In this document: piece after piece, positions 4,827-53,230 of the stretch | Layout of the letters: every line of letters begins with the position of its first letter | How positions within the stretch are numbered: the stretch's first letter is position 1 | Source: an uncultured Bacillota bacterium | Lineage (GTDB): Bacteria; Bacillota; Clostridia; Christensenellales; Borkfalkiaceae | DNA length: 64,000 nt | Reading direction: 5' to 3' | NCBI GenBank assembly: GCA_949287895.1 | Contig: CASEIS010000118.1 | Span: 2,808 to 66,807, forward strand | Made by a program: the position numbers and the translations under genes | The notes under the pieces: generated by a model | What the model was told of the DNA's origin: nothing | Database searches by the model: none | The model's input: the letters and a program-made list of their open reading frames with translations, nothing else

Positions 4827-4855
4827 GATCTATGTCAGAGAGAGTACTCTGTAAA
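4827..4855 (+). repeat. 29-bp dispersed motif, copy 1
   Basis: GATCTATGTCAGAGAGAGTACTCTGTAAA; intergenic. Confidence 0.8.
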
Positions 4856-4944
4856 TTGTTGAAAAATTCAATTTATTGCATATATTCTGCAAAACGGTGC
4901 CTTTCGCGCCGTTTTTGCGGTTTTGAAAGGAGCTGCCGATTTTT

Positions 4945-5481
4945 ATGAAATTTTTGATCGCTTCCGACATCCACGGCTCGTGCATCTATGCGCAGCGCAT
5001 CGCCGACCTTCTCGCGGAAGAGGGCGCCGATCAGCTGATCCTGCTCGGCGACATCTACAACCACGGGCCGCGCAATCCACTCCCCGAGGGCTACGACCCG
5101 ATGGGCGTCGCAAAGATCTTAAACGGCATGGTCGACCGACTGACCGTTATCAAGGGTAACTGCGACAGCGACGTCGATACGATGATCTCCGACTTCGAAT
5201 TCGTCTCGGAGGGGATCCTCATGTCGGGGGGCAAGAAGATTTTTTTGCAGCACGGCGATCGCTTCAGCATCGACGCGCTTCCCAAAAACTGCGGCGACGC
5301 CTTCTTCTACGGCCATTATCATACGGGGTTCATCGAACGCCGCGGCGGCGTGCTCGTCGCCAACTGCGGCTCGATATCCCTGCCCAAAAACGGAACGCCG
5401 CGCAGCTATCTCCTGCTGGACGGCGCCCATCTTTCGCTCAAAGATCTCGGCAAAAACGTCCTTGCCGAGGCGGACATCTGA
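4945..5481 (+). CDS. YfcE/MJ0936-family metallophosphoesterase
   Basis: SDIHG, GDIYNHGPRN, GNCD and GHYH motifs. Confidence 0.88.
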   Translation: MKFLIASDIHGSCIYAQRIADLLAEEGADQLILLGDIYNHGPRNPLPEGYDPMGVAKILNGMVDRLTVIKGNCDSDVDTMISDFEFVSEGILMSGGKKIFLQHGDRFSIDALPKNCGDAFFYGHYHTGFIERRGGVLVANCGSISLPKNGTPRSYLLLDGAHLSLKDLGKNVLAEADI

Positions 5482-5552
5482 TCGCAGCTTCGCCTGCAGC
5501 GAGATCTTCAAAACAGTTCAAAATTTATTTATGTATATGAGGTAAACGTCTT

Positions 5553-6533
5553 ATGGAAAAGATCCGGATCGGTATCGTCGGATACGGCAACCTGGGCCGC
5601 GGCGTGCAGTACGCGGCCACGCAGAACGAAGATATGGAAATCGTCGCCGTCTTCACTCGCCGCGACCCCGTGGCGGTCAAGACCGTTCTCCCCGTCAAGG
5701 TGGAGACGATGGAGGCGATGCAGAGTTACGTCGGTAAGATCGACGTCATGATCTTGTGCGGCGGCAGCGCGACAGACCTGCCCAAGCAGTCGGCAGAGGT
5801 CGTACGCCTGTTCAATACGGTGGACAGCTTCGACACGCACGCGCACATTCCCGAATATTTCGATCGCCTGGACGGGGCGGCGAAGGAAGCCGGCCACGTC
5901 GGAGCGATGAGCATCGGCTGGGATCCCGGCCTGTTCTCGCTCGCGCGCATCTACTTCGGTTCGGCGCTTTCGCAGGGCAAGACGTACACCTTCTGGGGCA
6001 AGGGGGTCAGCCAGGGGCACAGCGACGCCATCCGCCGCGTGCCCGGCGTCAAGGACGCGCGTCAGTACACCGTTCCCGTCGAGGAGGCGCTGCGCCGCGT
6101 GCGCAGCGGCGAAGAGCCCGAGCTGACCACGCGCGAGAAGCATACGCGCGAGTGCTACGTCGTCGCCGAAGAGGGCGCCGACCTCGCGCGCATCGAGCAC
6201 GACATCAAGACGATGCCCGATTATTTCGCCGACTACGATACGACGGTGTATTTTATTTCTGAAGAAGAGTTGCAGCGCGACCATGCCGGCATCCCGCACG
6301 GCGGCTTTGTGCTTCGCTCCGGCCGTTCGGCGACGGACAACCGCTTCCTGATGGAGTTTTCTTTGAAGTTGGACAGCAACCCGGAATTTACTTCGAGCGT
6401 GCTCGTCGCCTACGCGCGCGCCGTCTATCGCCTGCACAAAGAGGGGAAGACGGGCGCCGTCACCGCCTTTGACGTCGCACCGAAATATCTCAGCCCGCTC
6501 TCTGAAGCGGAGCAGCGCCGCCAGCTGCTTTGA
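5553..6533 (+). CDS. ddh: meso-Diaminopimelate D-dehydrogenase
   Basis: GYGNLG, CGGSATDLP, DSFDTH, GWDPG, FWGKGVSQGHSDA, NPEFTSS. Confidence 0.95.
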   Translation: MEKIRIGIVGYGNLGRGVQYAATQNEDMEIVAVFTRRDPVAVKTVLPVKVETMEAMQSYVGKIDVMILCGGSATDLPKQSAEVVRLFNTVDSFDTHAHIPEYFDRLDGAAKEAGHVGAMSIGWDPGLFSLARIYFGSALSQGKTYTFWGKGVSQGHSDAIRRVPGVKDARQYTVPVEEALRRVRSGEEPELTTREKHTRECYVVAEEGADLARIEHDIKTMPDYFADYDTTVYFISEEELQRDHAGIPHGGFVLRSGRSATDNRFLMEFSLKLDSNPEFTSSVLVAYARAVYRLHKEGKTGAVTAFDVAPKYLSPLSEAEQRRQLL

Positions 6534-6631
6534 TCGGCGGCAATATCGTATATAAGGGGCGCACCGATGTCGGCGCGCCTCTTTCTTTGTTTTGTTTTTT
6601 CACAGAAATTGCGGGAACTTTGGCGAAAGGA

Positions 6632-6660
6632 TTGCAACGGCGCGCGAAATGTGATAAAAT
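6632..6660 (+). promoter_or_regulatory. SigA-type promoter of the paaK-ior cluster
   Basis: TTGCAA-17 bp-TAAAAT with extended TG. Confidence 0.65.
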
Positions 6661-6704
6661 AATAAGTAACTGATTCCTTTTCGGAATAATCACGAGGTGG
6701 AGTT

Positions 6705-8000
6705 ATGATGTTCAGCCCAGAGATCGAAACGATCGACCGCAAAGCGCTGCGCGAAATGCAGCTGGAACGTTTGAAGTATATCGTGCGCTATGCGTATGAG
6801 AACGTGCCTATGTACCGCCGCCGGTTTGACGCGATCGGGCTCAAGCCGGAGCACATCCGCACGCTGAAAGATATCGAGCTGATCCCGTATACGACCAAAG
6901 ACGACCTGCGCGACAATTATCCCTTCGGGATGTTCGCCGTACCGATGAAAAAGATCATCCGTCTGCACGCGTCTTCGGGCACGACGGGCAAGCCCGTCGT
7001 CGGCGGCTATACGCGCAAGGACCTTGACAACTGGTCGACCTGCATCGCTCGCATCCTGACGATGGCGGGGGCGACGGATGAAGATATCTTCCACGTCGCG
7101 TTCGGCTATGGCTTGTTTACGGGCGGTTTCGGTCTGCATTACGGCGTCGAAAAGTTGGGCGCGACCGTCGTGCCCGTCTCTTCGGGCAACACCGAACGCC
7201 AGCTCATGCTGATGAAAGATTTCGGCGCGACGGCGCTGATCGCGACGCCGAGTTATGCGATGTACCTCGCCGAAACGGCCAAGAGCAAGGGGATCCTGCC
7301 CGACCTCAAGCTGCGCCTGATCTGCATGGGGGCGGAGGCCTCCACGGCGGAGATGCACGAGTCGCTGCAAAAGCTGTTCGGCGCCTTCCCGACCGAAAAC
7401 TACGGCTTGACCGAAGTGGGCGGCCCCGGCGTATCGGGCGAGTGCCGCGAAAAGGCGGGCATGCACATCAACGAAGATATGTTCTACCCCGAGATCGTCG
7501 ATATCGAGCACAACCGCGTGCTCGGCGAGGGCGAGCTCGGCGAAATGGTCATCACGACGTTGACCAAAGAGGGGATGCCCGTGCTGCGCTACCGCACCAA
7601 GGACATCACTTCCATCACCTACGAGCCCTGCCGCTGCGGCCGCACGCTCGCGCGCATGTCGCGCGTGGTCGGGCGCACGGACGACATGCTCATCATCCGC
7701 GGCGTCAACGTCTTCCCCTCGCAGATCGAGAGCGTCCTGATGAGTATGGACGAGCTGGGCAAGATGTACGAGATCGTCGTCGACCGCGTCAACTATATGG
7801 ATACCATCGAGGTGCGTGTGGAAGTGGACGACGCGAGCCTGTTGACCGACTACTCCAAGCTGGAGGCGCTCGTCGCCAAGATCAAGCACAACCTGCGCGT
7901 CGTGCTGCAGCTTGACGTCAAGGTCAAGCTGGTCGAGCCCTTCTCCATCCGCCGTACGGAAGGGAAGGTCAAGCGCGTCATTGACCTGCGTAAAAAGTAA
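6705..8000 (+). CDS. paaK: Phenylacetate-CoA ligase family protein, copy 1
   Basis: HASSGTTGKP, YGLFTGG, YGLTEVGGPG, RYRTKD, GRTDDMLIIRGVNVFPSQIE. Confidence 0.9.
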   Translation: MMFSPEIETIDRKALREMQLERLKYIVRYAYENVPMYRRRFDAIGLKPEHIRTLKDIELIPYTTKDDLRDNYPFGMFAVPMKKIIRLHASSGTTGKPVVGGYTRKDLDNWSTCIARILTMAGATDEDIFHVAFGYGLFTGGFGLHYGVEKLGATVVPVSSGNTERQLMLMKDFGATALIATPSYAMYLAETAKSKGILPDLKLRLICMGAEASTAEMHESLQKLFGAFPTENYGLTEVGGPGVSGECREKAGMHINEDMFYPEIVDIEHNRVLGEGELGEMVITTLTKEGMPVLRYRTKDITSITYEPCRCGRTLARMSRVVGRTDDMLIIRGVNVFPSQIESVLMSMDELGKMYEIVVDRVNYMDTIEVRVEVDDASLLTDYSKLEALVAKIKHNLRVVLQLDVKVKLVEPFSIRRTEGKVKRVIDLRKK

Positions 8001-8057
8001 AATATCCGGGCAAATGCCCGTTTCGCTTGCAAATCATTCACAGAGGTTAAGGTTATT

Positions 8058-9776: not shown

Positions 9777-9777
9777 C

Positions 9778-10338
9778 ATGAAAAGTTTGGATATCCTGAT
9801 CGTCGGCGTCGGCGGGCAGGGGACGCTGCTCGCGAGCCGCGTCCTCGGCAAATACGCGCTCGAATGCGGATATGACGTCAAGCTGAGCGAGGTGCACGGC
9901 ATGGCACAGCGCGGCGGCAGCGTCATGACGTATGTCCGCATCGGCGAAAAGATCGCCTCTCCCATCATCGACGAGGGGCGGGCGGACCTCATCCTCGCCT
10001 TTGAAAAGCTTGAAGCGCTGCGCTACGCGCATTACCTCAAGCCGGATGGCGAGATCTTGTACTCCACGCAGGAGATCATGCCGATGCCCGTCGTGACGGG
10101 TGCTGCCGAATACCCGAAGGGGATCGAAGAGAAGCTGCGCGGCGTCGGTATCGACGCGCTCGACCTTGCGCTGCAGGCCGGCAACTCGAAGGCTGCCAAC
10201 TCGGTCATGCTCGGCGCGCTGTGCAAAAAGCTCGGGCTCGATCGCGAAAAATTTGAAGCGGCACTGCTCGCGAGCATTCCGCAGAAGACCATCGACATGA
10301 ACCGCCGCGCCTTTGAACTTGGCTACGCGGCCGTATAA
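9778..10338 (+). CDS. iorB: Indolepyruvate:ferredoxin oxidoreductase beta subunit
   Basis: GVGGQG, SEVHGMAQRGGSV, EKLEALR; directly after iorA. Confidence 0.93.
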   Translation: MKSLDILIVGVGGQGTLLASRVLGKYALECGYDVKLSEVHGMAQRGGSVMTYVRIGEKIASPIIDEGRADLILAFEKLEALRYAHYLKPDGEILYSTQEIMPMPVVTGAAEYPKGIEEKLRGVGIDALDLALQAGNSKAANSVMLGALCKKLGLDREKFEAALLASIPQKTIDMNRRAFELGYAAV

Positions 10339-10373
10339 TCATTCAAACGAACTTCAAATAAAGGGGAAACTGT

Positions 10374-12190: not shown

Positions 12191-12219
12191 GATATATGTC
12201 ATGCATAGTACTATGCAAA
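12191..12219 (+). repeat. 29-bp dispersed motif, copy 2
   Basis: GATATATGTCATGCATAGTACTATGCAAA; intergenic. Confidence 0.85.
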
Positions 12220-16986: not shown

Positions 16987-17015
16987 TTCGCATAGTACTA
17001 TGTCACACATAGTTT
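16987..17015 (-). repeat. 29-bp dispersed motif, copy 3
   Basis: Minus strand AAACTATGTGTGACATAGTACTATGCGAA; between convergent transcription units. Confidence 0.85.
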
Positions 17016-17067: not shown

Positions 17068-17332
17068 CTGTGCATCCTCCGTTGAAAATGTGCGCCGAAG
17101 CGTTAACACCGCAGGTGACTCCTGCAAAGCTTCCTTATGGCACACGAACACATCCGCTTAGTGCTGCTATATCCCTATCCTGACACGGTTCACGGCAGTC
17201 CGTTGCATAAGACCTTGCGATCAACGTTCCTTACGGAGCGCGGCCTTCCACGCGCAAGTCCGCGGGAGGCGTTCGGTTCTGCTATAGCGGATTGCAGATG
17301 CAGGGCACCGCTAACTCCCCACCTAGCACAGC
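17068..17332 (-). ncRNA. ffs: Signal recognition particle RNA, large (Alu-containing) bacterial type
   Basis: 5' GCTGTGCTAGGTGGGGAGTTAGCGGTGCCCTG..CTGCAATCCGCT Alu domain; helix 8 GTGTCAGG...AGCAGCAC; complementary ends; upstream TTGCAA-17-TAAAAT. Confidence 0.92.
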
Positions 17333-18684: not shown

Positions 18685-18771
18685 TGGTGCCGCTGGTCGG
18701 ACTCGAACCGACACGGTATCGCTACCACTGGATTTTGAGTCCAGCGCGTCTGCCAATTTCACCACAGCGGC
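18685..18771 (-). tRNA. tRNA-Leu(CAA)
   Basis: Cloverleaf with anticodon arm CTGGA-CTCAAAA-TCCAG, long variable arm, encoded CCA. Confidence 0.97.
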
Positions 18772-18913: not shown

Positions 18914-18942
18914 TTTACAGAGTACTATGTGTGATATAGAAC
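18914..18942 (-). repeat. 29-bp dispersed motif, copy 4
   Basis: Minus strand GTTCTATATCACACATAGTACTCTGTAAA; contains the ATG at 18927. Confidence 0.8.
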
Positions 18943-19436: not shown

Positions 19437-20027
19437 CTAAAAGCGGCGTACCAGCCCGATCACCTTGCCGAGGATCGAGACCTCGTCGACGACGATGTCG
19501 TCCATCGTCGGGTTTTCGGGATGGAGTACATAATATCCGTCTTTTTTGAAGAAGCGCTTGACGGTCGCGCTGTCGTCGAGCAGGGCGACGACGATATCGC
19601 CGTTTTCGGCTGTCTGCTGGCGGCGGACGACGATCTTATCGCCGTCGAGGATGCCCGCGTCGATCATGCTCGTGCCCTGCACGTTGAGCATGAACAGCTC
19701 GCTGCCTGCAAAGCTCCCGGCGGGGAACGAGTAGTAGTCCTCGTAATTTTCATAGGCGAAGATGGGCTGGCCGGCCGTGACAGTACCGATGAGCGGGATG
19801 TTGACGGAGGAGCTCCGCTTGAAGCTGACTGCGCGGTTCTTATTCGGCGAACGCGAAAGCAGCCCTTCGTTCTTCAGCTTTTCGAGATAATAATAGGCGG
19901 ATGCCGTCGATTTGATGTGCAGTTCGGCGCAGATTTCGCGCACGGTAGGAGAGTAGCCGTATTCGGCATTGTACTCGTTGATATAATTCAGAACTGCCTG
20001 CATCTTGTTTCTGCTGCTCTCAGACAT
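19437..20027 (-). CDS. lexA: SOS repressor LexA
   Basis: GYSPTVREIC winged helix, VTAG cleavage site, GTSM, ATVKRF; RBS AGGAGG. Confidence 0.95.
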   Translation of the reverse strand: MSESSRNKMQAVLNYINEYNAEYGYSPTVREICAELHIKSTASAYYYLEKLKNEGLLSRSPNKNRAVSFKRSSSVNIPLIGTVTAGQPIFAYENYEDYYSFPAGSFAGSELFMLNVQGTSMIDAGILDGDKIVVRRQQTAENGDIVVALLDDSATVKRFFKKDGYYVLHPENPTMDDIVVDEVSILGKVIGLVRRF

Positions 20028-20385: not shown

Positions 20386-22641
20386 ATGAAAGAGAAAAGA
20401 GCTGAAGTGTTGGCTCCCGCGGGGGATGCTGCGGCGTTGAAAGCGGCGCTTGCTGCCGGAGCGGATGCGGTCTATCTCGGCCTGCAAGATTTTTCTGCGC
20501 GCAAGTCTGCCGCCAACTTTACCGTCGAAGATCTTAGCTCTGCTACCCGCCGCGCACACGCGCTCGGCGCGAAGATCTACGTCGCCCTGAATACGCTCGT
20601 CAAGGATGAAGAACGCAATGGCTTTTTTACGAGCGCACTGCAGGCGTGGAACGCGGGTGCTGATGCGCTGATCATACAAGATCTCTTCCTTGGCCGCGAA
20701 CTGAAGGGGCTGTATCCGGAGATGGAGCTTCATCTCTCTACCCAGGCGGGCGTCTGCAATGCGGAGGGGGCGAGCCTCGCCAAAGAATGTGGCTTTACGC
20801 GCGTCATTCTCGCCCGCGAGACGCCGCTTGCCGACATCAAGCGCATCGCCGCGATCATCGAGACGGAATGTTTTGTGCAGGGCGCGCTCTGCACCTGCTT
20901 TTCGGGACAATGTTACTTTTCATCTGCCGTCGGCGGAAACAGCGGCAACCGCGGCCTGTGTAAACAGCCTTGCCGCAAGCGCTACTCCATCGACCGTGCA
21001 GGCTTTGAAAAACCCGCCTATCGCCTCTCCCTCGCCGATCTGTGCGTGGGGAAGGACATCGTAAAGCTGCTGGAGGCGGGCGTATCCTCCTTCAAGATCG
21101 AGGGGCGCATGCGTTCCGCCGCCTATGTGGGCGCCGCCGTGCGGTACTACCGCGACATCCTTGATGGAACGGGGAATTTGGCGGAAGATCTTTCCGACCT
21201 GAAACGCACCTTCAACCGCGGCAACTACACCAAGGGCTACCTCTTCGGGCAGGATCAGAATTTGCTCTCGTCTGCCATCCAGGGGCACATCGGCGAAGCT
21301 GTCGGCAAGCTCGAGGGGAAGGACAAGAGCGGGCGCTACCTGTTTGTGCGCTCCGCCTTTGTGCCGCAAGATAAAGACGGCTTCAAGATCATCCGCGGCG
21401 GCGCGGAAGAAGTGGGCGGCGCGGCCTGGCACAGCAGCTACCCGGCTGGCAAGGGCGGCTTTTATCTCCCGTTTGACGCAAAATACCGCCGCGGTGACGA
21501 TGTTTGCCTGACGCTGGACAACGCGCTCGCAGTGCGCATCGAAAGCCGCCGCCGCACGGCTGAAGTGCGGCTTCGCATCGCGATGCGTGCCGGGGAACCG
21601 CTGCGCGTCACGGCGTGCGGCAGCTTCGGCGAGTACAGCGCGCAGTCTCCCTTTACAGCCGAGATCTCGCGCAACCGTCCGACGACGGCAGAAGATCTCG
21701 CCGATTGCTTTGCGAAGGTAGACGGCCTGCCCGTCAGCGTCCGCTTTGACGAGGTCTGTGCGGACGGGCAGAGCTTTGCCGTGCGTTCGCAGCTGAACGC
21801 ATTCCGCCGCGCGGTGTGGGCGGACATCTACGAGCGCCTCTCAGCGACGCATCCGCCGCTGGAGGACCGCGGCTTTCCCTCGCATCCCGCGTTTGCGGCG
21901 GAGCCGGCGCAGGGGAAGATCGCCGTCATCGACCGCGATTTTTCGGCGCCCTGCTACCGGGGTCGGATGCTCGATTATGCCATCTTTGACCCTGTCGACT
22001 GCAATAATCAGGGGAATATTCGCGATTTTTTGGAAAATGCGAAGTACTATGCCAGGCATAAATACCTCTATCTACCAGCATACTGCACGGGCGAAGATCT
22101 GAAGCTGTACGAGCCGCTGCTGCCGCTGTTTGACGGCATCTACGCGGACGGATATTATGCGCTGCGGCTGTGCCGCGAAAACAATATCCCTCTCTTTGCA
22201 GGGACGGGAATGAACCTCTTCAACCGCGCCGACGCGCTCGGTGCGCTTGGTGCGGGCGCGGGAGAGATCGCGCTCTCCAAGGAGCTATCTCTGACCGAGA
22301 TCGGGGCGATCGGCGTCCCGTCCGCCTTTGTATTTGCGGGCGGGCGGACGCGGCTGATGGACCTCGGGCATTGTCCGTTCGGGAAGCGCTGCGTATCCTG
22401 CGACCGCACCGTCGACCGCTATACGCTGCGCGATGAGGCCGGGCGGGAATTTCCGCTGCTGCGCGCAGAGCGCTCCGCCTGCCGCTTTACCGTCTACAAC
22501 TGCGTCCCGCTGCGCGTCGATTGCGGCGGCAATAAGCTGTTCGATCTGAGCGCCTCGACGCCGGAAGAAAAGGAGCGCATCCTCTCCGGAACCGGGGGCG
22601 GCGCGTTCACGGCAGGGGCATCTAAAAAAGGAATTTATTGA
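20386..22641 (+). CDS. Peptidase U32 family protein (RlhA-like Fe-S RNA hydroxylation protein)
   Basis: EVLAPAG, GADAVYLG, HLSTQ, LARE, LCTCFSGQC, NRGLCKQPCR, FKIEGRM. Confidence 0.85.
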   Translation: MKEKRAEVLAPAGDAAALKAALAAGADAVYLGLQDFSARKSAANFTVEDLSSATRRAHALGAKIYVALNTLVKDEERNGFFTSALQAWNAGADALIIQDLFLGRELKGLYPEMELHLSTQAGVCNAEGASLAKECGFTRVILARETPLADIKRIAAIIETECFVQGALCTCFSGQCYFSSAVGGNSGNRGLCKQPCRKRYSIDRAGFEKPAYRLSLADLCVGKDIVKLLEAGVSSFKIEGRMRSAAYVGAAVRYYRDILDGTGNLAEDLSDLKRTFNRGNYTKGYLFGQDQNLLSSAIQGHIGEAVGKLEGKDKSGRYLFVRSAFVPQDKDGFKIIRGGAEEVGGAAWHSSYPAGKGGFYLPFDAKYRRGDDVCLTLDNALAVRIESRRRTAEVRLRIAMRAGEPLRVTACGSFGEYSAQSPFTAEISRNRPTTAEDLADCFAKVDGLPVSVRFDEVCADGQSFAVRSQLNAFRRAVWADIYERLSATHPPLEDRGFPSHPAFAAEPAQGKIAVIDRDFSAPCYRGRMLDYAIFDPVDCNNQGNIRDFLENAKYYARHKYLYLPAYCTGEDLKLYEPLLPLFDGIYADGYYALRLCRENNIPLFAGTGMNLFNRADALGALGAGAGEIALSKELSLTEIGAIGVPSAFVFAGGRTRLMDLGHCPFGKRCVSCDRTVDRYTLRDEAGREFPLLRAERSACRFTVYNCVPLRVDCGGNKLFDLSASTPEEKERILSGTGGGAFTAGASKKGIY
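22036..22064 (-). repeat. 29-bp dispersed motif, copy 5 (inside CDS)
   Basis: Minus strand TATTTATGCCTGGCATAGTACTTCGCATT. Confidence 0.65.
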
Positions 22642-27194: not shown

Positions 27195-27223
27195 TTTGCA
27201 TAGTACTATGTCTGACAAAATTT
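27195..27223 (-). repeat. 29-bp dispersed motif, copy 6
   Basis: Minus strand AAATTTTGTCAGACATAGTACTATGCAAA; contains the ATG at 27208. Confidence 0.85.
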
Positions 27224-27714: not shown

Positions 27715-28409
27715 AAAATTACGACGCGATCGTCGCCGACCTGCGCTCGATGCGCGACGAAACATACCGCGCGTTCAACGAGCGCATCGCCAATATACCT
27801 GCGGGCAGCAGCATCGGTGTACGCACGCCGGCGCTGCGCGCCTATGCGAAGGAGCTCGTGCGGGCGGAGGGTTTTTCGCTCGGCGAGCTCTTCTCCTTTC
27901 CGAACGATATCTACGAGATCCGCCTGCTGCAATGCCTCGGCGTCGGTTATTGCAAGATACCTTTCGGCGAGCGTGCCGATTGGATCCGCCGCGCCGTCTC
28001 CATCATCGACGGTTGGTCCGTCTGTGACCTGTTATGCTCGACGCTGCGCATCCCGAAGGCCGCAAAACAGTCTTTTTTGACAGAAATAGAGTATTATGTC
28101 AGACATGGATCGGAGTTTTCGCAGCGTTTTGCCTACGTGATGCTGCTCGGCAACTATGTCGACGAAGCACATCTATCCTTTATTTTTTCTGCGCTTGACC
28201 GAGCCGAAACAAAATTTTACTATACCCATATGGGGGCGGCATGGCTGCTGTGCGAGGTGCTTGTCAAGTTTTACGAAGCGGGCGTCGCCTATCTGAAGGA
28301 GGGTGCGCTCGATGCTGCGACCAAACGCAAGGCGATCCAAAAGGCTTGTGAGAGCTTTCGACTGACCGCCGAGCAAAAAAACTTTCTGAAACTTTTGAAA
28401 AAGGGATGA
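27711..28409 (+). CDS. DNA alkylation repair protein (AlkD-like)
   Basis: GVRTPALR, IDGWSVCD, YYTHMGAAW, AIQKACESFR; ATGA overlap with the upstream gene. Confidence 0.82.
   Translation: MKNYDAIVADLRSMRDETYRAFNERIANIPAGSSIGVRTPALRAYAKELVRAEGFSLGELFSFPNDIYEIRLLQCLGVGYCKIPFGERADWIRRAVSIIDGWSVCDLLCSTLRIPKAAKQSFLTEIEYYVRHGSEFSQRFAYVMLLGNYVDEAHLSFIFSALDRAETKFYYTHMGAAWLLCEVLVKFYEAGVAYLKEGALDAATKRKAIQKACESFRLTAEQKNFLKLLKKG
28083..28111 (-). repeat. 29-bp dispersed motif, copy 7 (inside CDS, core variant)
   Basis: Minus strand GATCCATGTCTGACATAATACTCTATTTC. Confidence 0.6.
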
Positions 28410-45373: not shown

Positions 45374-47185
45374 ATGAATATCTACTATAATCCCTTAGAC
45401 GTACGCTGTAAGAGCATCATCGGCGGGATTGAGCAAAACCAGGAATTGCATATCCGTGTTTACGGCAAAAGTACTGAGCCTTGTCTGTTCGTCCTGCATA
45501 AGGACGGACAGTCTGGGGCTCAATATTTGCATATGGATCCCGTTGCGGATGGATGGAGTTTGCTCTTAAACCTGCAGGAACCGGGCCTCTATTTTTACCA
45601 CTTCCAATTCGGAGAACGCTATGTCGCCGGCTGCGGAAAATTTCGCAACATTGAATTTTCCGAATCGATCACAGAGTACCAGATCTTAGTATATCGCAAA
45701 GGTTTCCAAACGCCGGACTGGTTCAAAGGGGGGATCATGTATCAGATCTTCCCCGATCGTTTTTACAAGAGCGGCGACGTAACTGTCGCTCCGGAAAAAT
45801 GGCTGCATCAAAGTTGGTACGAGGCGCCCGAATACCGCATGAACGCCGAAGGCAAGGTCCTCAACAATGACTTTTTCGGCGGAAATATTCGCGGTATTCT
45901 CGAAAAGCTCGACTATTTACAGAGCCTGCACGTCACGATCATCTATCTCAATCCGATTTTTCGCTCCTTTTCCAATCACCGATACGACACGGGTAACTTT
46001 ATGGAGATCGATCCGACGTTCGGCACAGAGGAGGAGTTTGCCGAGCTCGTAGAGGAATGCCGGAAGCGCGGCATGCGCATCATGCTGGACGGCGTCTTCA
46101 ACCATACGGGCGATGATAGCTTGTATTTTAATAAATACGGGCGTTATAATGAAGTAGGGGCATATCAATCTAAAAATTCAAAGTACTATGCGTGGTATAG
46201 TTTTATTCATTATCCTGAAAAGTACCACGCCTGGTGGGGGATCGATAATTTGCCCGCCGTTAACGAAGAGGAGCCGTCGTATGCCGCGTACATAACGGGC
46301 GAAGACGGGGTCCTCAAACATTGGATGCAATACAAGCTCGGCGGATTCCGTTTGGACGTCGCCGATGAACTCCCCGACGAGTTTATCGAGAAGATCCGCG
46401 CAGCCGTCAAGAGCTCAGATCCAAACGCGATCGTCCTCGGCGAAGTGTGGGAGGACGCCTCCAACAAGATCGCTTACAGCAAGCGCCGCAAATATTTTTG
46501 GGGCAACGAGCTGGACAGCGTGATGAATTATCCGCTCAAGGACGCGATCATCCAGTTTATCACCAGCGGCAACACGACGACCTTCCGCCAGACGATCGCC
46601 ATGTTGCGCGACAACTACCCGAAGACCGTCCTCGACTCGCTGATGAACATACTCGGCACGCATGATACTGCGCGCATCCTGACGGCGATGGGCGGCGTCT
46701 GTGCGTACACCAAAGACGAGATGAGCCGCATCAAGATGGACGAGGCGGCCCGCAAAAAGGCTGCCGAGCGCGTCAAAGCGGCGACCGTTCTGTTGCTTAC
46801 CGTCTTTGGCGTGCCGTGCATCTACTACGGCGATGAGATCGGCATGGAAGGGTATTCTGATCCATTTTGCCGGTTTCCGTTCGATTGGGAACACATGGAT
46901 GCAGAGATGCTCGCGCATTACCGCCGCTTGACACATATCCGATCTTCTCTCTCCGTATTCCGCGACAGCGAATATAAGGAGCTTTTCGCCGATGAAAATT
47001 GCATCGTCTATGAACGGCGAAAGGGGAAAGAGGTAGCCGTCGTCGTCATGAACTGCGGCCATAACCGCTATGATATGAAATATCGCGGCAAGTTGTTCGA
47101 CCTCCTCCACGGCAATGCGGTGCACCGCGACCACTTTGCTATAATGCCGCACTATTACACGATTTTAAGCAATCATCTGGTGTAA
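45374..47185 (+). CDS. GH13 glycoside hydrolase (amylopullulanase/neopullulanase-like)
   Basis: YQIFPDRF, SNHRYDT, DGVFNH, RLDVADE, GEVWED, GTHDT, IYYGDE. Confidence 0.88.
   Translation: MNIYYNPLDVRCKSIIGGIEQNQELHIRVYGKSTEPCLFVLHKDGQSGAQYLHMDPVADGWSLLLNLQEPGLYFYHFQFGERYVAGCGKFRNIEFSESITEYQILVYRKGFQTPDWFKGGIMYQIFPDRFYKSGDVTVAPEKWLHQSWYEAPEYRMNAEGKVLNNDFFGGNIRGILEKLDYLQSLHVTIIYLNPIFRSFSNHRYDTGNFMEIDPTFGTEEEFAELVEECRKRGMRIMLDGVFNHTGDDSLYFNKYGRYNEVGAYQSKNSKYYAWYSFIHYPEKYHAWWGIDNLPAVNEEEPSYAAYITGEDGVLKHWMQYKLGGFRLDVADELPDEFIEKIRAAVKSSDPNAIVLGEVWEDASNKIAYSKRRKYFWGNELDSVMNYPLKDAIIQFITSGNTTTFRQTIAMLRDNYPKTVLDSLMNILGTHDTARILTAMGGVCAYTKDEMSRIKMDEAARKKAAERVKAATVLLLTVFGVPCIYYGDEIGMEGYSDPFCRFPFDWEHMDAEMLAHYRRLTHIRSSLSVFRDSEYKELFADENCIVYERRKGKEVAVVVMNCGHNRYDMKYRGKLFDLLHGNAVHRDHFAIMPHYYTILSNHLV
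46175..46203 (-). repeat. 29-bp dispersed motif, copy 8 (inside CDS)
   Basis: Minus strand AAACTATACCACGCATAGTACTTTGAATT. Confidence 0.6.
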
Positions 47186-47193
47186 AACTTTCT

Positions 47194-47222
47194 TTTGTAT
47201 AGTACTATGCCAGACATAATAC
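47194..47222 (-). repeat. 29-bp dispersed motif, copy 9
   Basis: Minus strand GTATTATGTCTGGCATAGTACTATACAAA; intergenic. Confidence 0.85.
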
Positions 47223-47235
47223 CGTCTTAATCGCG

Positions 47236-48159
47236 ATGAAGATCCGTTCCTGCTTATCAATCATCCTTATCCTCGCACTGCTTTTGTTATGCGGCTGTTC
47301 TGCCGTCTTTACGCGCGCAGATAGCCCGCAAGAGATCGAGCTGCAGCCCTCCGCACAAGACAGCGCCGAGGTCGATCCGTCCTGCCGCAGTCAGGGCGCC
47401 GTCGTCTCGATCGTCTCGATCGGGACTTTTCGGTATGGCCTCGCACTCGGTTCCGTCGTCAGCATCACGTCCGGCGTCATCATCGATCATGAGGGGTACG
47501 TCGTTTCCTCGTCGGAAGCAGCGCTGCCTACGCTGATCGATCAAAACGGCGATATCTATGTCGGTGAAGCGACGGCGATCTATGCTGTCCTTTCCGATGT
47601 GTATCAAAACGATCGCTCGCTCTATAAATTAGATCTTGTCGATATGGACGAAGATCGCGGCCTGGCACTGCTTTCCTTTTATGATCGGTTTTACTATGAT
47701 GCCGAAGATTTCGGCTCCGGCGATAGGGTCGGCCGCACGGAAGGCTTCCCGATCGTCGCCGAATTTTCTGCTGAGACGGCTTTGACCGGAATGCCTTGCA
47801 CCATCATCGGCAATGCGATCAGCGGCGTCATGAACGATCTGCAATATCCGTTTTCGATGGAATACGTCTGTCTTTCGGCTTCGCGCGGCATCGTCGCATC
47901 TGCAAGCGCCGCCGATTTTCTCATTTCTGCAGCCATCAGCGCAGAGATGGGCGGCAGCGCGATCTTTGATGCGAGCGGTTATCTGATCGGCCTCGTTTCT
48001 CAAAAGTTGCCCGGCGATACGGCAGGGGATTCGACCTATCTCGAAAATATCGCATCCGGCATTTGTTCCGCGGCGATCATCGATTACATTGATACTGTTT
48101 CGGCCTCGTTACATGTGCCGATCCCGTACACGGTCGCAACCGGGGAGGCCGCCGCATGA
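47236..48159 (+). CDS. Lipoprotein with one degenerate trypsin-like (S1C) domain
   Basis: Lipobox LCGC; AVVSI, SGVIIDHEGYVVS, IIGNAI, EMGGSAIFDASGYLIG; catalytic His and Ser motifs lost. Confidence 0.65.
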   Translation: MKIRSCLSIILILALLLLCGCSAVFTRADSPQEIELQPSAQDSAEVDPSCRSQGAVVSIVSIGTFRYGLALGSVVSITSGVIIDHEGYVVSSSEAALPTLIDQNGDIYVGEATAIYAVLSDVYQNDRSLYKLDLVDMDEDRGLALLSFYDRFYYDAEDFGSGDRVGRTEGFPIVAEFSAETALTGMPCTIIGNAISGVMNDLQYPFSMEYVCLSASRGIVASASAADFLISAAISAEMGGSAIFDASGYLIGLVSQKLPGDTAGDSTYLENIASGICSAAIIDYIDTVSASLHVPIPYTVATGEAAA

Positions 48160-50060
48160 GACGCTGCAGACATTTTTTCCGCTTCTATTGTTTGCCGGTG
48201 CTGTTGGCCGCAGCCTTACTTTTACTCTCTGCCTGCGGCATCGCTGCACCGCCGGAATACGACGGCAACAGGCGCTTTGAAACAGCCTATACTGAAACGG
48301 ACGAGAGCCTTTCGACCAACTTTTCCGAAGCCTATGCCGCCGCATCCGCATCCGTCGTTATGGTCGAAGTCCGTGCCTCTGCAGCCGATATCACTTACGG
48401 CAGCGGCGCCGTCATTGACGGCGAACAGGGCTACATCCTGACCTCTTCGTCGTTGGTTGCGCGCGATGCGATCACCGAGCCGACATATACGGTTACTTTT
48501 GCCGACGGAAACAGCGCCTCCGCGACGCTGTATGGGTACGGCGCGCGTTCAACCGGCCGCTGGTTCTATCGTTCGCCATCGGTGAGCGACGACCGCATCC
48601 CGAGCAACGCCGATATTGCCGTTTTAATTGTAGACGGCGCTGCAAATGGGCGCTATACCGACTTGAACGGAACGGAGCACGCTTTGCCGCAAGCGCTCGC
48701 CTTTGCGGATTCAGACGCGCTTACTTATGGCGAAAGCTGTTTTCTTATCGGGACCGTCGTCAGCAAAGATGGCGCCAAGCCAGGATTGGCTGCCGAAGGA
48801 CTTATCTCCAAACCATCCAATACACATACTTCAAATTTTGAATTTGCAGACGGCAGCAGCCTGTTTGACGGCTCGTTTGCCTATCTCGTGCAGACGAGCA
48901 TCCAAACGAATAGCGGAAATGAAGGCGCGCCGTTGCTCAACGAGGCCGGGCAGATCGTCGGTCTGATCAACCGCCGCGCCGAGACGACGGAGCGCTATGT
49001 ACAAGGCGAAGCGTACGGGCTCTCTTTTGCGACACCTTCGACAGTGATCTGCGATACGCTCGCTGACGGCGGGATCGATATCCAGCCGGAAGAAACGCCG
49101 CTGCCTACGCGCGAAAGTATCATTTCAAACGCCGATTCCATTCACATGGCGACCGATCCCGTCGCACAGATCCTGATGCGGCGCCGCCCGGCCGTCACGT
49201 CCTCTCAAAGTCAATACATCGGCAGTTCCGATTATTACGTCGCCGATGCAAGCTCGCCGATCATTTTCGCTGCGGCAAAACAATGGGCGCAAGCATCTAC
49301 AAGCGCGCAAAAAGTCGCCGCGGCGACACTGGATAAAGTCGTCAAAATTATTGTTTACTCTGATCACATCGGCGCAGAAGAAGTGATCAATCTCAGTGAA
49401 GGAAGCGGCTTTCTCGTCCATTCGAGCGGCCTTGTCATGACGAATTTGCACGTCCTCAATAAATTGACCGAGCGCAACCAAATCGAAGCGGGTACCGCCA
49501 ACGCACGAGTCGATATCGAGGGTATTTCAGTCTTTGCCGTCTTTGAAAACGGAACGGACCGCTATGGACGCTTTATCCTGTTGCCGATGGATGTCGTCGC
49601 TTATCAGCAGCAGGGGGACCTGGCCGTGCTGCGCTTCCAAAACCAGATCTTTACCGAAACGGACAGCGACGAACCCGCAGAGGGATTTGCCGATATCTGT
49701 ACCTTTGAAAAGACGCTGCCGCAGCGCGGCGATACGGTCTATGCCATCGGCAACGCTGTCGCGTACGGCATTTCGATCGCGGACGGCATCGTTTCACTGC
49801 CAAATTCATCGTATTACCGCGACGAATTCGGCTATGACATGATCCAGACAGATTGCCCGATCAACGGGGGCAATTCCGGTGGCCCGATGTTGAATGCCGA
49901 AGGTCACGTCATCGGCGTCAATACGCTCGGCATCGGCGGCGAACTTACAACAAAATATGGCTATGAAAATATCAGCTGGGCCATCCCGGCAGCCTTTGCA
50001 GAACAATTTTTGCAGGCGGTGCTGCAAGGCCAAAGCGGAAACGGCGTCACCATCGTGTGA
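48156..50060 (+). CDS. Lipoprotein with two trypsin-like (S1C/HtrA-type) domains and no PDZ
   Basis: Lipobox LSAC; domain 1 GSG..ILTSSS, DIAVL, GNEGAP; domain 2 GSG..MTNLHV, DLAVL, GNSGGP. Confidence 0.82.
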   Translation: MRRCRHFFRFYCLPVLLAAALLLLSACGIAAPPEYDGNRRFETAYTETDESLSTNFSEAYAAASASVVMVEVRASAADITYGSGAVIDGEQGYILTSSSLVARDAITEPTYTVTFADGNSASATLYGYGARSTGRWFYRSPSVSDDRIPSNADIAVLIVDGAANGRYTDLNGTEHALPQALAFADSDALTYGESCFLIGTVVSKDGAKPGLAAEGLISKPSNTHTSNFEFADGSSLFDGSFAYLVQTSIQTNSGNEGAPLLNEAGQIVGLINRRAETTERYVQGEAYGLSFATPSTVICDTLADGGIDIQPEETPLPTRESIISNADSIHMATDPVAQILMRRRPAVTSSQSQYIGSSDYYVADASSPIIFAAAKQWAQASTSAQKVAAATLDKVVKIIVYSDHIGAEEVINLSEGSGFLVHSSGLVMTNLHVLNKLTERNQIEAGTANARVDIEGISVFAVFENGTDRYGRFILLPMDVVAYQQQGDLAVLRFQNQIFTETDSDEPAEGFADICTFEKTLPQRGDTVYAIGNAVAYGISIADGIVSLPNSSYYRDEFGYDMIQTDCPINGGNSGGPMLNAEGHVIGVNTLGIGGELTTKYGYENISWAIPAAFAEQFLQAVLQGQSGNGVTIV

Positions 50061-50091
50061 ACGCCGTTTTTTTATGCCTCGCGAGAGGAGA

Positions 50092-50619
50092 GCAAAACAC
50101 TGCGTAAAATACTGCGCGTAGGGTATCGCTCGCTGCGGGAAGAGAGCGCGCCGTTTTGCCAAAACCGCCGGCCAAACGCATCGGTGCCCGGCATCACGCG
50201 GGCCATGATCGACCGCCTGACAACAAATTATGCAGCTCTTTTGACGAAGTCGAAAAGACGTCCGTCATTTTTATTGGCTTGATTGAAAGTGCAATGGATG
50301 CTGCGCGCCGTACAGATCAAACAAAATGCGCCGCGAGTGACAGAATATAGGCGAGCCATCCATCAAAGCCTCGCACAAATTCTGTCTCAGCGCGCCTTAG
50401 AGGCTCTTTTGTTCATATATAAATTCAATGAAAACAAACACACCTCAAACCGCCGCGATAACCGATAGAATCTGAAAGGCAAACTTGTGCACCAGGATGA
50501 TTCATTTTATAAAGGCGGCGCCAAAGCATCAAAGCACGAAAGAATTCAAAACATTAGGCCACACCACCTCGTTTTATGCCTATTTATTCGTAAAAGTCGT
50601 GTTTTACGCAGTGTTTTGC
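50092..50619. repeat. Perfect 18-bp inverted repeat pair (50092-50109 and 50602-50619)
   Basis: GCAAAACACTGCGTAAAA and TTTTACGCAGTGTTTTGC. Confidence 0.85.
50585..50612. other. Candidate dif-type recombination site (11-6-11)
   Basis: TATTCGTAAAA-GTCGTG-TTTTACGCAGT; 7-bp inverted arms around a 6-bp spacer, about 210 bp upstream of the recombinase. Confidence 0.55.
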
Positions 50620-50786
50620 GTGTCTTGTTTTCTCCTCTACCACAAAAAGATGCGTGGCGCGTCATTCAATATAAGGAAGCTCTCACGTATAAAATTGCCG
50701 CCTGATGCGCTCTTACCGGCCCGCGCACAACAATTCCGGCTGCTTGCAGGCATATGCAGGCCCCTATGAATTTTTCAGACAAATCG

Positions 50787-50815
50787 TTGATTTTTTTGCC
50801 GTCATGCGGTATAAT
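50787..50815 (+). promoter_or_regulatory. SigA-type promoter of the recombinase gene
   Basis: TTGATT-17 bp-TATAAT ending 9 nt before the ATG. Confidence 0.7.
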
Positions 50816-50824
50816 ATCCTATAT

Positions 50825-51886
50825 ATGGCCGAGCAATCTTTTTACCAAAAACGAAATATCAAAAATTTAGAGCGCATCGAAGGCCTTTTAGAAGAGCTTC
50901 CACCCTTTGTTGAAGAATACTTTTTGGGGATCGAGAACCAGACGAGCACGCTGACAAGGCTCAATTACGCCTACGATCTGCGCATTTTTTTCGATTATCT
51001 CTCCAAAAAGCGGCTGCACGGAAAGGACGTTCGCTCCATCACCCTATCCGACCTCGAGGCGGTCTCTGCGACCGATATCGAGCGGTTTATCAGCTATCTG
51101 TCCAATTATGAGTTCCGCGGGGCGCACGAAAGCTGCAACGAACGCGCAAAAGCGCGCAAACTGTCGACCATCCGCGCCATGTTCAAGTACTTTTTTAAGA
51201 AGGAAAAGATCAGCGTCGACAACGCGGCAAAGGTTACGATGCCCAAACTGCACGAAAAAGAGATCATCCGCCTGGAGCCGAACGAGATCGCCGATTTGCT
51301 GAACTGCGCCGACTCGGGCAGCGGCATGAGCAACCACCAGCGCGCGTTCCATGACAGGACGCGCGTGCGCGACGTCGCAATTTTGACGCTCTTTTTGGGA
51401 ACGGGCATCCGTATCAGCGAGCTCGTCGGGTTGAACGACGAAGACATTGACTTTTCTTCTAACAGCTTCAAGGTGACGCGCAAAGGCGGCAACCAGGCTA
51501 TCCTCTACTTTTCGCAGGAGGTCGCCGATGCGCTCGCGCGCTACATGGCTTTTAAGGAAGAAGACCCGGAGATCCCGGAAGGCGAGCACGCACTGTTTCT
51601 GTCACTGAAAAAGCAGCGCATCAGCATCCGCGCCGTCGAAAACCTCGTCAAAAAATACAGCCGCATCATCTCGCCGCTGAAAAAGATCTCTCCCCATAAA
51701 CTCCGCAGCACCTATGGCACGCAGCTGTATCGGGAGACCAAGGATATCTACGTCGTCGCCGACGTACTCGGGCACAAAGACGTCAATACGACGCGCAAGC
51801 ATTACGCAGCCATCAGCGAGGACGTGCGCCGCGACGTGGCCGAAAAGGTACACCTGCGCGAACAAGACCCTCCACAGGACAAATGA
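50825..51886 (+). CDS. Xer-family tyrosine recombinase (single, XerS-like size, 353 aa)
   Basis: GIRISE, TRKGG, PHKLRST, LGH, RKHY give a complete R-K-H-R-H-Y set; housekeeping context next to hflX. Confidence 0.88.
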   Translation: MAEQSFYQKRNIKNLERIEGLLEELPPFVEEYFLGIENQTSTLTRLNYAYDLRIFFDYLSKKRLHGKDVRSITLSDLEAVSATDIERFISYLSNYEFRGAHESCNERAKARKLSTIRAMFKYFFKKEKISVDNAAKVTMPKLHEKEIIRLEPNEIADLLNCADSGSGMSNHQRAFHDRTRVRDVAILTLFLGTGIRISELVGLNDEDIDFSSNSFKVTRKGGNQAILYFSQEVADALARYMAFKEEDPEIPEGEHALFLSLKKQRISIRAVENLVKKYSRIISPLKKISPHKLRSTYGTQLYRETKDIYVVADVLGHKDVNTTRKHYAAISEDVRRDVAEKVHLREQDPPQDK

Positions 51887-51900
51887 GCGCGATCATGCGC

Positions 51901-51929
51901 GATTTATGTCACGCATAGTACTTTGCAAA
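51901..51929 (+). repeat. 29-bp dispersed motif, copy 10
   Basis: GATTTATGTCACGCATAGTACTTTGCAAA; between the recombinase and hflX. Confidence 0.85.
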
Positions 51930-51931
51930 AT

Positions 51932-53197
51932 ATGGAAATACGCGAAAATATCGACCAAAACGGAATTCAAGAAAAAATTTATATCGTACAGCCCATCTTA
52001 AACGACGAGGCGCTCGCCCTGCGCGACGAGGCTGTATCGCTGATCGAAAGCGCGGGCGCGCTCTACGCGGGCACCATCTTCCAGAAGATCCGCGATGTCA
52101 ACCCCGCAACTTTTATCGGGCCGGGCAAGCTGCAGGAGCTGCGCGAGCGGCTGGACGGGCTGGATGTGACCGTCCTCTTCAACGGCGAACTGACCCCCTC
52201 CCAAACGCTCAACATCTCCGCCGCGCTGGACAATAAAAAGGTGATCGACCGCACCACGCTCATTCTCGATATCTTTGCCAACAATGCGCGCAGCAGCGAA
52301 GGCAAGCTGCAGGTCGAACTCGCGCAGCTGCAGTATATGTATCCGCGCCTCAAAGGCAAAGGCGAAGCGCTCTCCAGGCTCGGCGGCGGGATCGGCACGC
52401 GCGGCCCGGGCGAAACGAAATTAGAAACGGATCGCCGTCGCATCCGCATGCGGATCGCCTATTTGAAAGATCGCCTCAACACACTTGAAAATCGCCGCGA
52501 GCTCGTCAATGCGCGCCGCAAAAAGGAATCTGCACGGCGCATCGCGCTCGTCGGCTATACAAATACAGGGAAATCGACCCTGCTCAACTTGCTGACGGGC
52601 GCCGATGTTCCTGCCGAAGATCGCCTGTTTGCGACGCTCGACCCTACGACGCGCCGCCTCGTCATCGACGGGATCGAGTTCTTGCTCACCGATACTGTCG
52701 GTTTTTTGCGCGAACTGCCGCACAACCTGATCTCCGCATTCCACTCGACGCTCGAAAGCGCGCTCAACTGCGACCTCGCGCTGATCGTCTGTGACGCGAC
52801 GAGCGATTATCGGATGCAATACGAGACGACGCTGCAGACGCTCAAAGAGCTCGAATGTGACGTTCCTTGCCGCATCGTCATGAACAAGTGCGAATCGATC
52901 GATTGCTTTGACGAATATCCCCGCGATGCGATCTTTATCTCCGCTAAAGAGAATATCGGTATCGATCGCCTTCGGCAGGAAATCTTAAGACATTTTTCCG
53001 CCGATATGTCGACCGTCTGCCTGCGCATCCCCTACACGCGCATGAACGAATACGCGCGCGTCAAAGGTTATGCAGCGGAGAGCGACTTTCGCTATATGGA
53101 TGACTGTGTAGAGCTGTCGGCACGCATCCCGAACATCCACCTGTCGAAGTTTGCCCCCTTTCGCATCCCCGACCGCGAGGAAAAACAGCCTCGGTAA
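51932..53197 (+). CDS. hflX: Ribosome-splitting GTPase HflX
   Basis: IDRTTLILDIF, GGIGTRGPGETKLE, GYTNTGKS, LFATLDPT, DTVGF; start uncertain. Confidence 0.95.
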   Translation: MEIRENIDQNGIQEKIYIVQPILNDEALALRDEAVSLIESAGALYAGTIFQKIRDVNPATFIGPGKLQELRERLDGLDVTVLFNGELTPSQTLNISAALDNKKVIDRTTLILDIFANNARSSEGKLQVELAQLQYMYPRLKGKGEALSRLGGGIGTRGPGETKLETDRRRIRMRIAYLKDRLNTLENRRELVNARRKKESARRIALVGYTNTGKSTLLNLLTGADVPAEDRLFATLDPTTRRLVIDGIEFLLTDTVGFLRELPHNLISAFHSTLESALNCDLALIVCDATSDYRMQYETTLQTLKELECDVPCRIVMNKCESIDCFDEYPRDAIFISAKENIGIDRLRQEILRHFSADMSTVCLRIPYTRMNEYARVKGYAAESDFRYMDDCVELSARIPNIHLSKFAPFRIPDREEKQPR

Positions 53198-53201
53198 AGG
53201 C

Positions 53202-53230
53202 GATCTACGTGTGGCATAGTACTCTGCAAA
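53202..53230 (+). repeat. 29-bp dispersed motif, copy 11
   Basis: GATCTACGTGTGGCATAGTACTCTGCAAA; between convergent genes. Confidence 0.85.

Follow-up and report, generated by a model that had tools for sequence, protein, structure and literature searches.

We analysed a window of 64,000 nucleotides from an uncultured Bacillota bacterium of the family Borkfalkiaceae (assembly GCA_949287895.1, contig CASEIS010000118.1, positions 2,808 to 66,807), in which an initial annotation, made from the letters alone, had noticed eleven copies of an asymmetric 29-bp motif and had proposed that they belong to a terminus-organising site system. Comparison with related genomes indicated that the motif is excluded from the origin-proximal part of the chromosome and concentrated around the region of the window, and that its orientation switches at a dif-like site beside the gene for a XerS-like recombinase. 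With a probability of about 0.6, we read the motif as the unit of a dif-centred, orientation-switching array of predicted sites for a sequence-specific DNA-binding protein complex. The distribution and the polarity switch thus support the proposed terminus-organising system, of which the binder and the mechanism are putative.

Distribution and polarity around a dif-like site

The genome from which the window comes (G000) is a metagenome-assembled genome (MAG) of 1.72 Mb in 177 contigs with 62% G+C. A scan with a position weight matrix (PWM) found 88 copies of the motif in it at a threshold of at least 26 bits and 128 at a threshold of at least 14 bits, of which the window holds 11. To place these copies along the chromosome, we matched the contigs of G000 to those of a better-assembled relative, G020. 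No site lay on the 377 kb matching G020 contigs C4 (the dnaA contig), C6, C8 and C10, whereas 75 sites lay on the 763 kb matching C1, C2, C3, C7 and C9 (Poisson P value ~ 4 × 10−9). Within G000, the contigs syntenic with the window had the highest site density (15 per 100 kb). G020 itself had 108 sites (control, 0). Among the matches listed, outside of which 8 of the 108 fall, the sites occupied contigs C1, C2, C3, C5, C7, C9, C11, C19 and C22, with one more on the 118-kb C6; a further 0.69 Mb or so of contigs, the dnaA contig among them, had none. When C4, C6, C8 and part of C10 were scanned with the matrix, one match was obtained in 396 kb.

Equivalent results were obtained in more distant species of the genus. 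G053 has a 1.925-Mb contig (C2) with dnaA at 1,226 kb, and 23 of its 24 sites (control, 3) lay either in the initial 150 kb of this contig or on three further contigs; together these amount to about 0.8 Mb, the terminus-proximal third of the genome. The remaining 1.77 Mb, which hold dnaA, had one mismatched site (binomial P value ~ 6 × 10−11). In G017, the 22 sites were found on four contigs that make up 475 kb of 1.8 Mb. In most species, about 15 to 30% of the chromosome belongs to the domain that carries sites, a share that reaches about 55% in the clade of G000; "terminus" is to be read broadly. A uniform genome-wide distribution, which the initial annotation had set against its own proposal, was found neither in G000 nor in G053. 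The two lone sites outside the domain, G020:C6:35125 and G053:C2:1287420, may be the same orthologous site; each lies 2 to 2.6 kb from a small PadR-family gene, and the one in G053 is about 61 kb from dnaA.

Next, we looked at the orientation of the sites relative to the dif-like palindrome, which has the core CGTAAAA-N6-TTTTACG flanked by outer arms. In the window, the seven copies from 16987 to 47194 are on the minus strand and the two copies past dif are on the plus strand; the copies at 4827 and 12191 break this rule, both at places that are new or rearranged in the clade. On the syntenic contig of G020 (C7), 9 of 10 sites left of dif were on the minus strand and 8 of 11 right of it were on the plus strand (Fisher's test, P value = 0.008). 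The sister genus behaved in the same way, with 6 of 6 sites on the minus strand left of the dif core (at 78.7 kb of G057:C2) and 5 of 7 on the plus strand right of it (P value = 0.02). The same switch at the dif core was present in G169, and 4 of the 5 sites on the dif contig of G117 fit it. On the left arm of G053:C2, for which the direction of the fork was taken from dnaA on the same contig, the reverse-complement motif was on the leading strand, pointing to the terminus, in 5 of 6 sites. On both arms, position 1 of the motif therefore faces dif, and the strong arm and the phased A/T tracts described below face the origin.

The dif-like site is located about 100 bp from the longest open frame of the recombinase gene; across 18 species of the genus, it alone is conserved within a spacer of 650 bp. 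Its core was found once or twice, with up to two mismatches, in 77 of 151 genomes of the order, a count to be read against control matches that are not negligible; CGTAAAA-N6-TTTTACG may be the common XerS-type dif of the Christensenellales. The recombinase is the only full-length integrase that we found in G000. Its best NCBIfam match is XerS (204.7 bits, under the cut-off of 267), and it is 71 to 85% identical across the genus from about residue 27 to 41 of the open frame onwards, with Met41 probably the conserved start. Throughout the genus, its gene is flanked by dif on one side and by a motif copy on the other. A single recombinase gene adjoining its own site is also the arrangement of streptococcal XerS/difSL (PMC5357621). 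The outer arms of dif were seen to change on both sides together, reading CTATGCG...CGCATAG in 12 species, CACTGCG...CGCAGTG in 5 to 6 and CACTTCG...CGAAGTG in the sister genus (g18), and this symmetric covariation suggests that they are read by the recombinase or are obliged to pair. G000 and G020 retain only a decayed form of the left outer arm.

Anatomy and conservation of the sites

Alignment of the G000 copies bore out the two overlapping dyads that had been described in the motif, TATGYSWSRCATA centred at position 11 and CATAGTACTATG centred at positions 19/20; the second is imperfect, since position 23 is free. The central five bases of TATGYSWSRCATA were found in either orientation. 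The strong arm consists of an almost invariant CATAGTACT followed by a free base and TGCAAA, and a weaker mirror arm lies opposite to it, from position 10 to −8. A site would then consist of a dyad, TATGYSWSRCATA, that is overlapped by a second dyad or strong arm, CATAGTACT-n-TGCAAA, and faced by the weak arm. The asymmetric core runs from position −8 to 39 and is larger than the 29 bp originally delimited, beyond which the weak arm reaches at positions −8 to 0.

Beyond the core, an A tract at positions 35 to 39 is followed by further A/T tracts at about 46 to 48, 56 to 60, 67 to 70, 77 to 80 and 87. The tracts recur with a period of 10 to 10.5 bp, on the 3′ side only and out to about position 90, and this degree of phasing was reached by none of 500 circular-shift controls, in G000 and in G020 alike. 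Because about 60 bp of helix-phased tracts lie on the origin-facing side, about 100 bp of DNA are probably bent or wrapped at each site. This anatomy is what we would expect of a protein-binding site at which DNA is bent in phase with the helix over about 100 bp. Rfam gave no family at the motif sites; in the window, only the signal recognition particle (SRP) RNA and one tRNA reached its threshold.

Several observations concern the position of the motif relative to other copies and to start codons. Paired copies in the same orientation, 23 to 64 bp apart, occur at G001:C10:7742-7781 and at G020:C1:3257-3338 and 105658-105729. The ATG within the motif (on the reverse strand of CATAGTACT) is the likely start codon of only two genes in the window, DUF1893 (at 18927) and a UDG-family gene (at 27208). 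As a general start codon it was rejected, since frames of at least 60 codons follow it in 17 to 22 of 88 sites, about as expected at 62% GC. The hflX gene begins 2 nt past a motif copy with no Shine-Dalgarno sequence (window 51929-51934), and its N-terminal residues are conserved in G020; it may be translated from a leaderless or very-short-leader mRNA that starts within the motif.

We then asked how widely the motif is distributed and how well its sites are kept. Its left part was above control in 41 of 41 sampled genomes of the genus, with 3 to 20 copies in most species and 43 to 84 in G000, G001, G020 and G051. The sister genus also carries the motif; it was not found in genus g19 (G144) nor in the 16 other families sampled. 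Outside the clade of G000, the left and central parts are kept and the TGCAAA end is looser.

Sites were conserved at orthologous places. At a constant offset of about 10.1 kb, G020:C7 has counterparts of 9 of the 11 window sites, the three intragenic ones among them. The copy before hflX gave a PWM match of at least 12 bits in 23 of the 24 congeners whose locus spans that place, in which the hflX gene itself has 65 to 81% DNA identity. For nearly all sites of the distant congeners G053, G017 and G004, G000 has a site at the corresponding place as well. Across 63 orthologous pairs from G000 and G020, the 29-bp motif was 91% identical versus 79 to 81% for its flanks, with 95 to 100% identity at the informative positions and flank-like values at the degenerate ones. 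These results indicate that the sites are under purifying selection.

Gain of a site could be followed between the aldose 1-epimerase and phosphoesterase genes, where the spacer measures 5 to 15 nt without the motif in G017, G053 and G004, and 115 to 133 nt with the motif and a terminator-like hairpin in G000, G020 and G054 (window 4812-4944). The two genes may be a former pair that was uncoupled by the motif-bearing spacer.

Motif copies and neighbouring genes in the window

A direct check of the sequence confirmed all 11 copies, with their positions and strands (Table 1). With a PWM built from all of them, they scored 30.7 to 45.4 bits each, and at up to three mismatches to the consensus the window had 5 copies compared with 0 in 100 dinucleotide-preserving shuffles. 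The PWM scan revealed no independent twelfth copy in the window; its additional weak matches were opposite-strand echoes, which arise because the motif is partially symmetric.

The genetic context was taken from our own gene calls, checked with Pfam and Rfam. As had been claimed, the neighbouring genes are functionally unrelated. They include those for aldose epimerase, a phosphoesterase, a lysA-type decarboxylase, a ZIP transporter, SRP RNA, a tRNA, DUF1893, peptidase U32, peptidase M16, a UDG-family protein, an alkylation-repair protein, an amylase, a trypsin-like lipoprotein, the recombinase and HflX. The placement of two copies between convergent genes (16987 and 53202) and of three within coding sequences (22036, 28083 and 46175) was likewise correct. 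The gene caller placed false open reading frames in the stretch of the SRP RNA and the tRNA.

Table 1. Motif copies, dif-like site, recombinase gene and nearby features, in window coordinates
Feature	Position	Strand	Score (bits)	Context	Counterparts and remarks
Motif copy	4827..4855	+	39.7	Aldose 1-epimerase/metallophosphoesterase spacer	Orientation breaks the arm rule; counterpart elsewhere on G020:C7
Motif copy	12191..12219	+	42.9	Between ACT-domain gene and diaminopimelate-ornithine decarboxylase-type gene	Orientation breaks the arm rule; no counterpart found; junction non-syntenic in G053 and G017
Motif copy	16987..17015	-	40.2	Between 3′ end of ZIP transporter gene and 3′ end of SRP RNA (convergent)	Ortholog in G020:C7
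Motif copy	18914..18942	-	41.2	Between tRNA gene (-) and DUF1893 gene (+); overlaps likely DUF1893 start codon	Ortholog in G020:C7
Motif copy	22036..22064	-	35.0	Within peptidase U32 gene	Same place in G020 and in the distant congener G053
Motif copy	27195..27223	-	42.4	Between M16 peptidase and UDG-family genes; overlaps likely UDG start	Identical in G020, present in G053
Motif copy (weaker)	28083..28111	-	30.7	Within DNA-alkylation-repair gene	Ortholog in G020:C7
Motif copy (weaker)	46175..46203	-	34.5	Within alpha-amylase-family gene	Ortholog in G020:C7
Motif copy	47194..47222	-	42.2	Fills 50-bp spacer between amylase and trypsin-like lipoprotein genes	Innermost left of dif; ortholog in G020:C7
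Motif copy	51901..51929	+	45.4	14 nt past recombinase stop, 2 nt before hflX start	Innermost right of dif
Motif copy	53202..53230	+	41.0	Between convergent hflX and 684-aa gene	Present in G020, G042 and G011
dif-like palindrome	50582..50615	.		About 210 bp upstream of recombinase gene	Core CGTAAAA-N6-TTTTACG plus outer arms
XerS-like single tyrosine recombinase gene	50825..51886	+			353 aa from conserved start; Pfam Phage_integrase and SAM-like domains
Bacterial large SRP RNA	17068-17331	-	173	Adjoins a motif copy	
tRNA gene	18688-18771	-		Adjoins a motif copy	
LexA repressor gene	19437-20027	-		About 500 bp from the 18914 copy	

Putative function, candidate binders and alternative explanations

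An array of this kind could act as a polar barrier or guide that defines a terminus domain. Anything travelling from the origin to the terminus would meet one face of the bound protein on both arms, and anything travelling the wrong way would meet the other face. Among the putative functions, we rank a multi-site replication fork trap highest, the length, tightness and overlapping dyads of the sites recalling RTP-Ter, followed by a directional barrier or unloader for SMC complexes and then by a guide for a DNA translocase. Reviews are available of terminus factors by which SMC is unloaded or stalled (PMC11840125, PMC8669397). Guidance of a translocase seems less likely, given that even the motif-less genus has FtsK with a normal gamma domain.

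We compared the array with the known systems that it most resembles. Long (23 to 30 bp), conserved and asymmetric sites, confined to the terminus and set in opposed groups that converge on it, are features of Tus-Ter in Escherichia coli and RTP-Ter in Bacillus subtilis, and with RTP-Ter the motif also shares two overlapping dyads with one strong and one weak part. In contrast to both, it has 20 to 110 sites instead of about 10, its sequence is unrelated, no Tus or RTP homologue was found in the genomes searched (see below), and we know of no counterpart in fork traps to its phased A/T arm of about 60 bp. A few dozen sites in a terminus-centred domain (24 in about 0.8 Mb in G053), within and between genes regardless of function, recall matS/MatP of enterobacteria. 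There, however, matS is a symmetric and non-polar palindrome of 13 bp (GTGACRNYGTCAC), from which the motif differs in its logo and by being asymmetric and polar, and MatP was not found either.

XDS of B. subtilis are likewise terminus-restricted sites around dif, and in some species the motif shares sequence with a dif arm; XDS are few, half-dif and bound by XerD, whereas here there is a single XerS-like recombinase and the motif is without the dif core. The FtsK-orienting polar sequences (KOPS) have a leading-strand polarity that inverts at dif and a density that rises towards dif (PMC5357621). The motif resembles KOPS and the related SRS and AIMS, which likewise orient FtsK or SpoIIIE, in both respects, with about one site per 6 to 13 kb, but KOPS are 7- to 8-mers read by the gamma domain of FtsK over the whole replichore, whereas the motif spans 29 to 48 bp and has no sites in the origin half. 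Repetitive extragenic palindromes (REP) and the mosaic elements built from them (BIME), which go with RAYT transposases, are also short, partly palindromic and mostly extragenic, present in tens to hundreds of copies and often located after genes, within operons or between convergent genes. Unlike them, the motif is not associated with a RAYT, is orthologous across genera and is under selection, and restriction to a chromosome domain and a polarity switch at dif are not known to us as features of REP.

Searches for known binders returned no homologue of RTP (PF02334) in G000, of Tus (PF05472) in nine genomes of the genus, or of MatP (PF06303) in G000, G020, G053 and G057. The role would therefore not be filled by a known protein, and the protein would be new. 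One lead is a PadR-like membrane protein of 681 aa (G000:C124:32757-34802, L207:1610-3655). Its N-terminal PadR winged helix is joined by about 400 aa of acidic and proline-rich, low-complexity (disordered) linker to a multi-pass membrane domain at the C terminus; such a membrane-anchored DNA-binding architecture is unusual, and it is conserved across the family. A motif copy lies 80 to 125 nt upstream of the gene for this protein in both genera, and in the motif-less genus g19 the leader of the gene contains TGTCAGACA dyads; we regard it as a weak lead only, because the gene is present in the motif-less genus as well. A small PadR paralogue with an upstream motif-like sequence in g18 was dropped from consideration, as the sequence in G020 was its own −10 region (TATAGTATT), with two mismatches and at noise level.

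Several points weigh against the array as we read it. The number of sites, 20 to 110, is far above that of known fork traps (about 10), and among the small genes adjoining sites an inspection by eye gave no convincing DNA-binding candidate, only NrdR-, Rrf2-, sigma- and LytTR-like N-termini. All genomes are MAGs whose contig order was inferred, and new sites arose by insertion in this clade, as in the spacer at 4827. Orientation also matches gene direction: in G020, the reverse-complement motif runs the same way as the gene upstream of it in 50 of 65 intergenic cases (about 78%). Only seven G020 sites separate gene direction from replichore, splitting 5:2 in favour of the replichore, and the difference between 86% for polarity and 78% for gene bias is marginal (P value = 0.055). 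Nor can GC skew fix the direction of replication independently, since skew at third codon positions is ruled by the coding strand; with a C excess of about 0.25 on that strand it was unusable, and dnaA, dif and gene direction were used instead. The third-position skew of the coding strand stood at about −0.25 on each of the G020 contigs C1, C2, C3, C7 and C9, which makes plain GC skew in these genomes largely a readout of gene direction. In the window, cumulative GC skew peaks near 33 kb and not at the dif-like site (50.6 kb).

The growth in copy number and the insertion at 4827 show that some copying process exists, which keeps alive a REP-like origin, either as an alternative or as the way in which a functional array grows. 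As an alternative, the copies would be a short REP-like repeat or miniature inverted-repeat transposable element (MITE), selfish or domesticated, that inserted in fork orientation through single-strand (Y1/IS200-type) or similar transposition and piled up at the terminus under weaker selection. We consider this unlikely. In its favour, copies rise from about 10 to 25 in most species to 90 to 110 in the clade of G000, G020, G001 and G051, at least one site sits in a clade-specific spacer segment of about 100 to 130 bp between otherwise near-abutting genes, the two short dyads are capable of forming hairpins, 24 of the 41 genomes of the genus carry Y1_Tnp genes, and orientation tied to replication is typical of IS200/IS605 insertions. 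However, the Y1_Tnp genes are not tied to copy number: G001, with about 90 sites, has none, G000 has a fragment, and species with few sites have full copies. We therefore discarded the link to RAYT and REP. BLAST of a whole motif-bearing spacer found no shared sequence past the motif, and there were no terminal repeats or target duplications, so the copies did not prove to be ends of a MITE or insertion sequence family, the outcome that had been raised against a terminus system. By eye, the degenerate positions had no hairpin-type covariation, positions 9/13 and 16/23 taking all combinations without pairing. Sites are orthologous across the genus (at genes 65 to 80% identical) and into the sister genus, with constraint falling exactly on the informative positions, and their total absence from the origin half is sharper than a gradient of relaxed selection would give.

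It is quite improbable that the motif is instead linked to transcription, either as the operator or promoter of a global regulator, for example of the PadR family, or as a roadblock at the ends of transcription units, with an orientation that follows genes. The co-directionality in about 78% of intergenic cases fits such a role, as do the roughly 22% of sites that come directly after a hairpin and T run, the extended −10-like sequences seen by eye on both strands (TGnCATAGT/TGnCATAAT) and the start of hflX just past the motif. The position of copies upstream of the PadR-like gene in both genera and the TGTCAGACA dyads in the g19 leader point the same way, ATGT/ACAT being the PadR half-site. 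On the other side, that gene is also found where the motif is missing, the neighbouring genes are unrelated, and many sites are operon-internal (conserved ones lie in thyA-folA, pyrF-pyrK, fumA-fumB, which encode two fumarase subunits, and relA-hydrolase), convergent (a conserved one between uvrA and DUF4363) or intragenic. Ten of the 65 intergenic sites of G020 run antisense to the genes on both sides, among them the hflX site that is kept genus-wide. Downstream of many sites, ordinary TTGACA-N17-TATAAT promoters were seen as separate elements; a house-keeping promoter was accordingly rejected as an identity for the motif, and the spacings of the sigma-54, sigma-E/K/F/G and sigma-D consensus sequences do not fit. 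A regulon would also give no reason for the absence from the origin half or for the switch at dif. Hits mainly at promoters of one regulon, or a match to a known operator, had been named as outcomes that would tell against a terminus system; we found sites in unrelated operons, convergent spacers and coding sequences, no Rfam match, and no known operator that could be named.

Very unlikely, in our judgement, is an array of pseudo-dif sites bound by the XerS-like recombinase itself, in analogy to XDS, which are described as dif-like sites in the terminus that act with XerD (PMC11840125, citing Karaboja 2021). In 12 of 18 species, the outer arms of dif read CTATGCGT/ACGCATAG, an 8-mer that is also the commonest centre of the motif, the 3′ part of the motif, CTATGCAAA, resembles the dif arm CTATGCGTAAAA, and the recombinase gene sits between dif and a motif copy in the whole genus. 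Yet motif and arms do not covary: 6 of the 18 species have other outer arms, of the CACTGCG/CGCAGTG type, the sister genus has CACTTCG/CGAAGTG, and the motif stays unchanged at CATAGTAC. The motif also has no conserved dif core CGTAAAA, and outer-arm elements 5 bp apart would not be able to hold two recombinase monomers as dif does. Because the motif is unchanged in the six species and the sister genus with other arms, the recombinase is unlikely to be the binder. The likeness to a dif arm, real in some species and absent in others and in the sister genus, was accordingly downgraded as evidence for binding by XerS, and the resemblance of the right part of the motif to the XerD arm, which the initial annotation had suggested, found no support beyond this 8-mer common to dif outer arm and motif in some species.

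Returning to the dif-centred array, dedicated terminus systems are known from very few bacteria, with Tus-Ter and MatP-matS in enterobacteria and RTP-Ter and XerD-XDS in Bacillus. A fuller picture, which we put forward tentatively and at slightly less than even odds, is that the Borkfalkiaceae have a new terminus system, in which a putative protein unrelated to Tus, RTP and MatP binds and wraps 20 to 110 polar sites converging on a XerS-type dif and so forms a chromosome-scale directional barrier. This barrier would be a fork trap or, in the manner of CTCF, an orientation-dependent block to SMC or translocases, and the array would have grown within the genus from about 15% of the chromosome to about 55%. 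The range in copy number within the genus, from about 20 to about 110, is a natural series for studying how such arrays grow, and in fragmented MAGs where GC skew is of no help, the position and orientation of the sites show where the terminus and the two chromosome arms lie. Moreover, a long, polar, terminus-confined and dif-centred motif provides a DNA handle for fishing out its binder in a lineage without the known proteins, and touches the question of how most other bacteria, gut Clostridia among them, end replication and organise their terminus.

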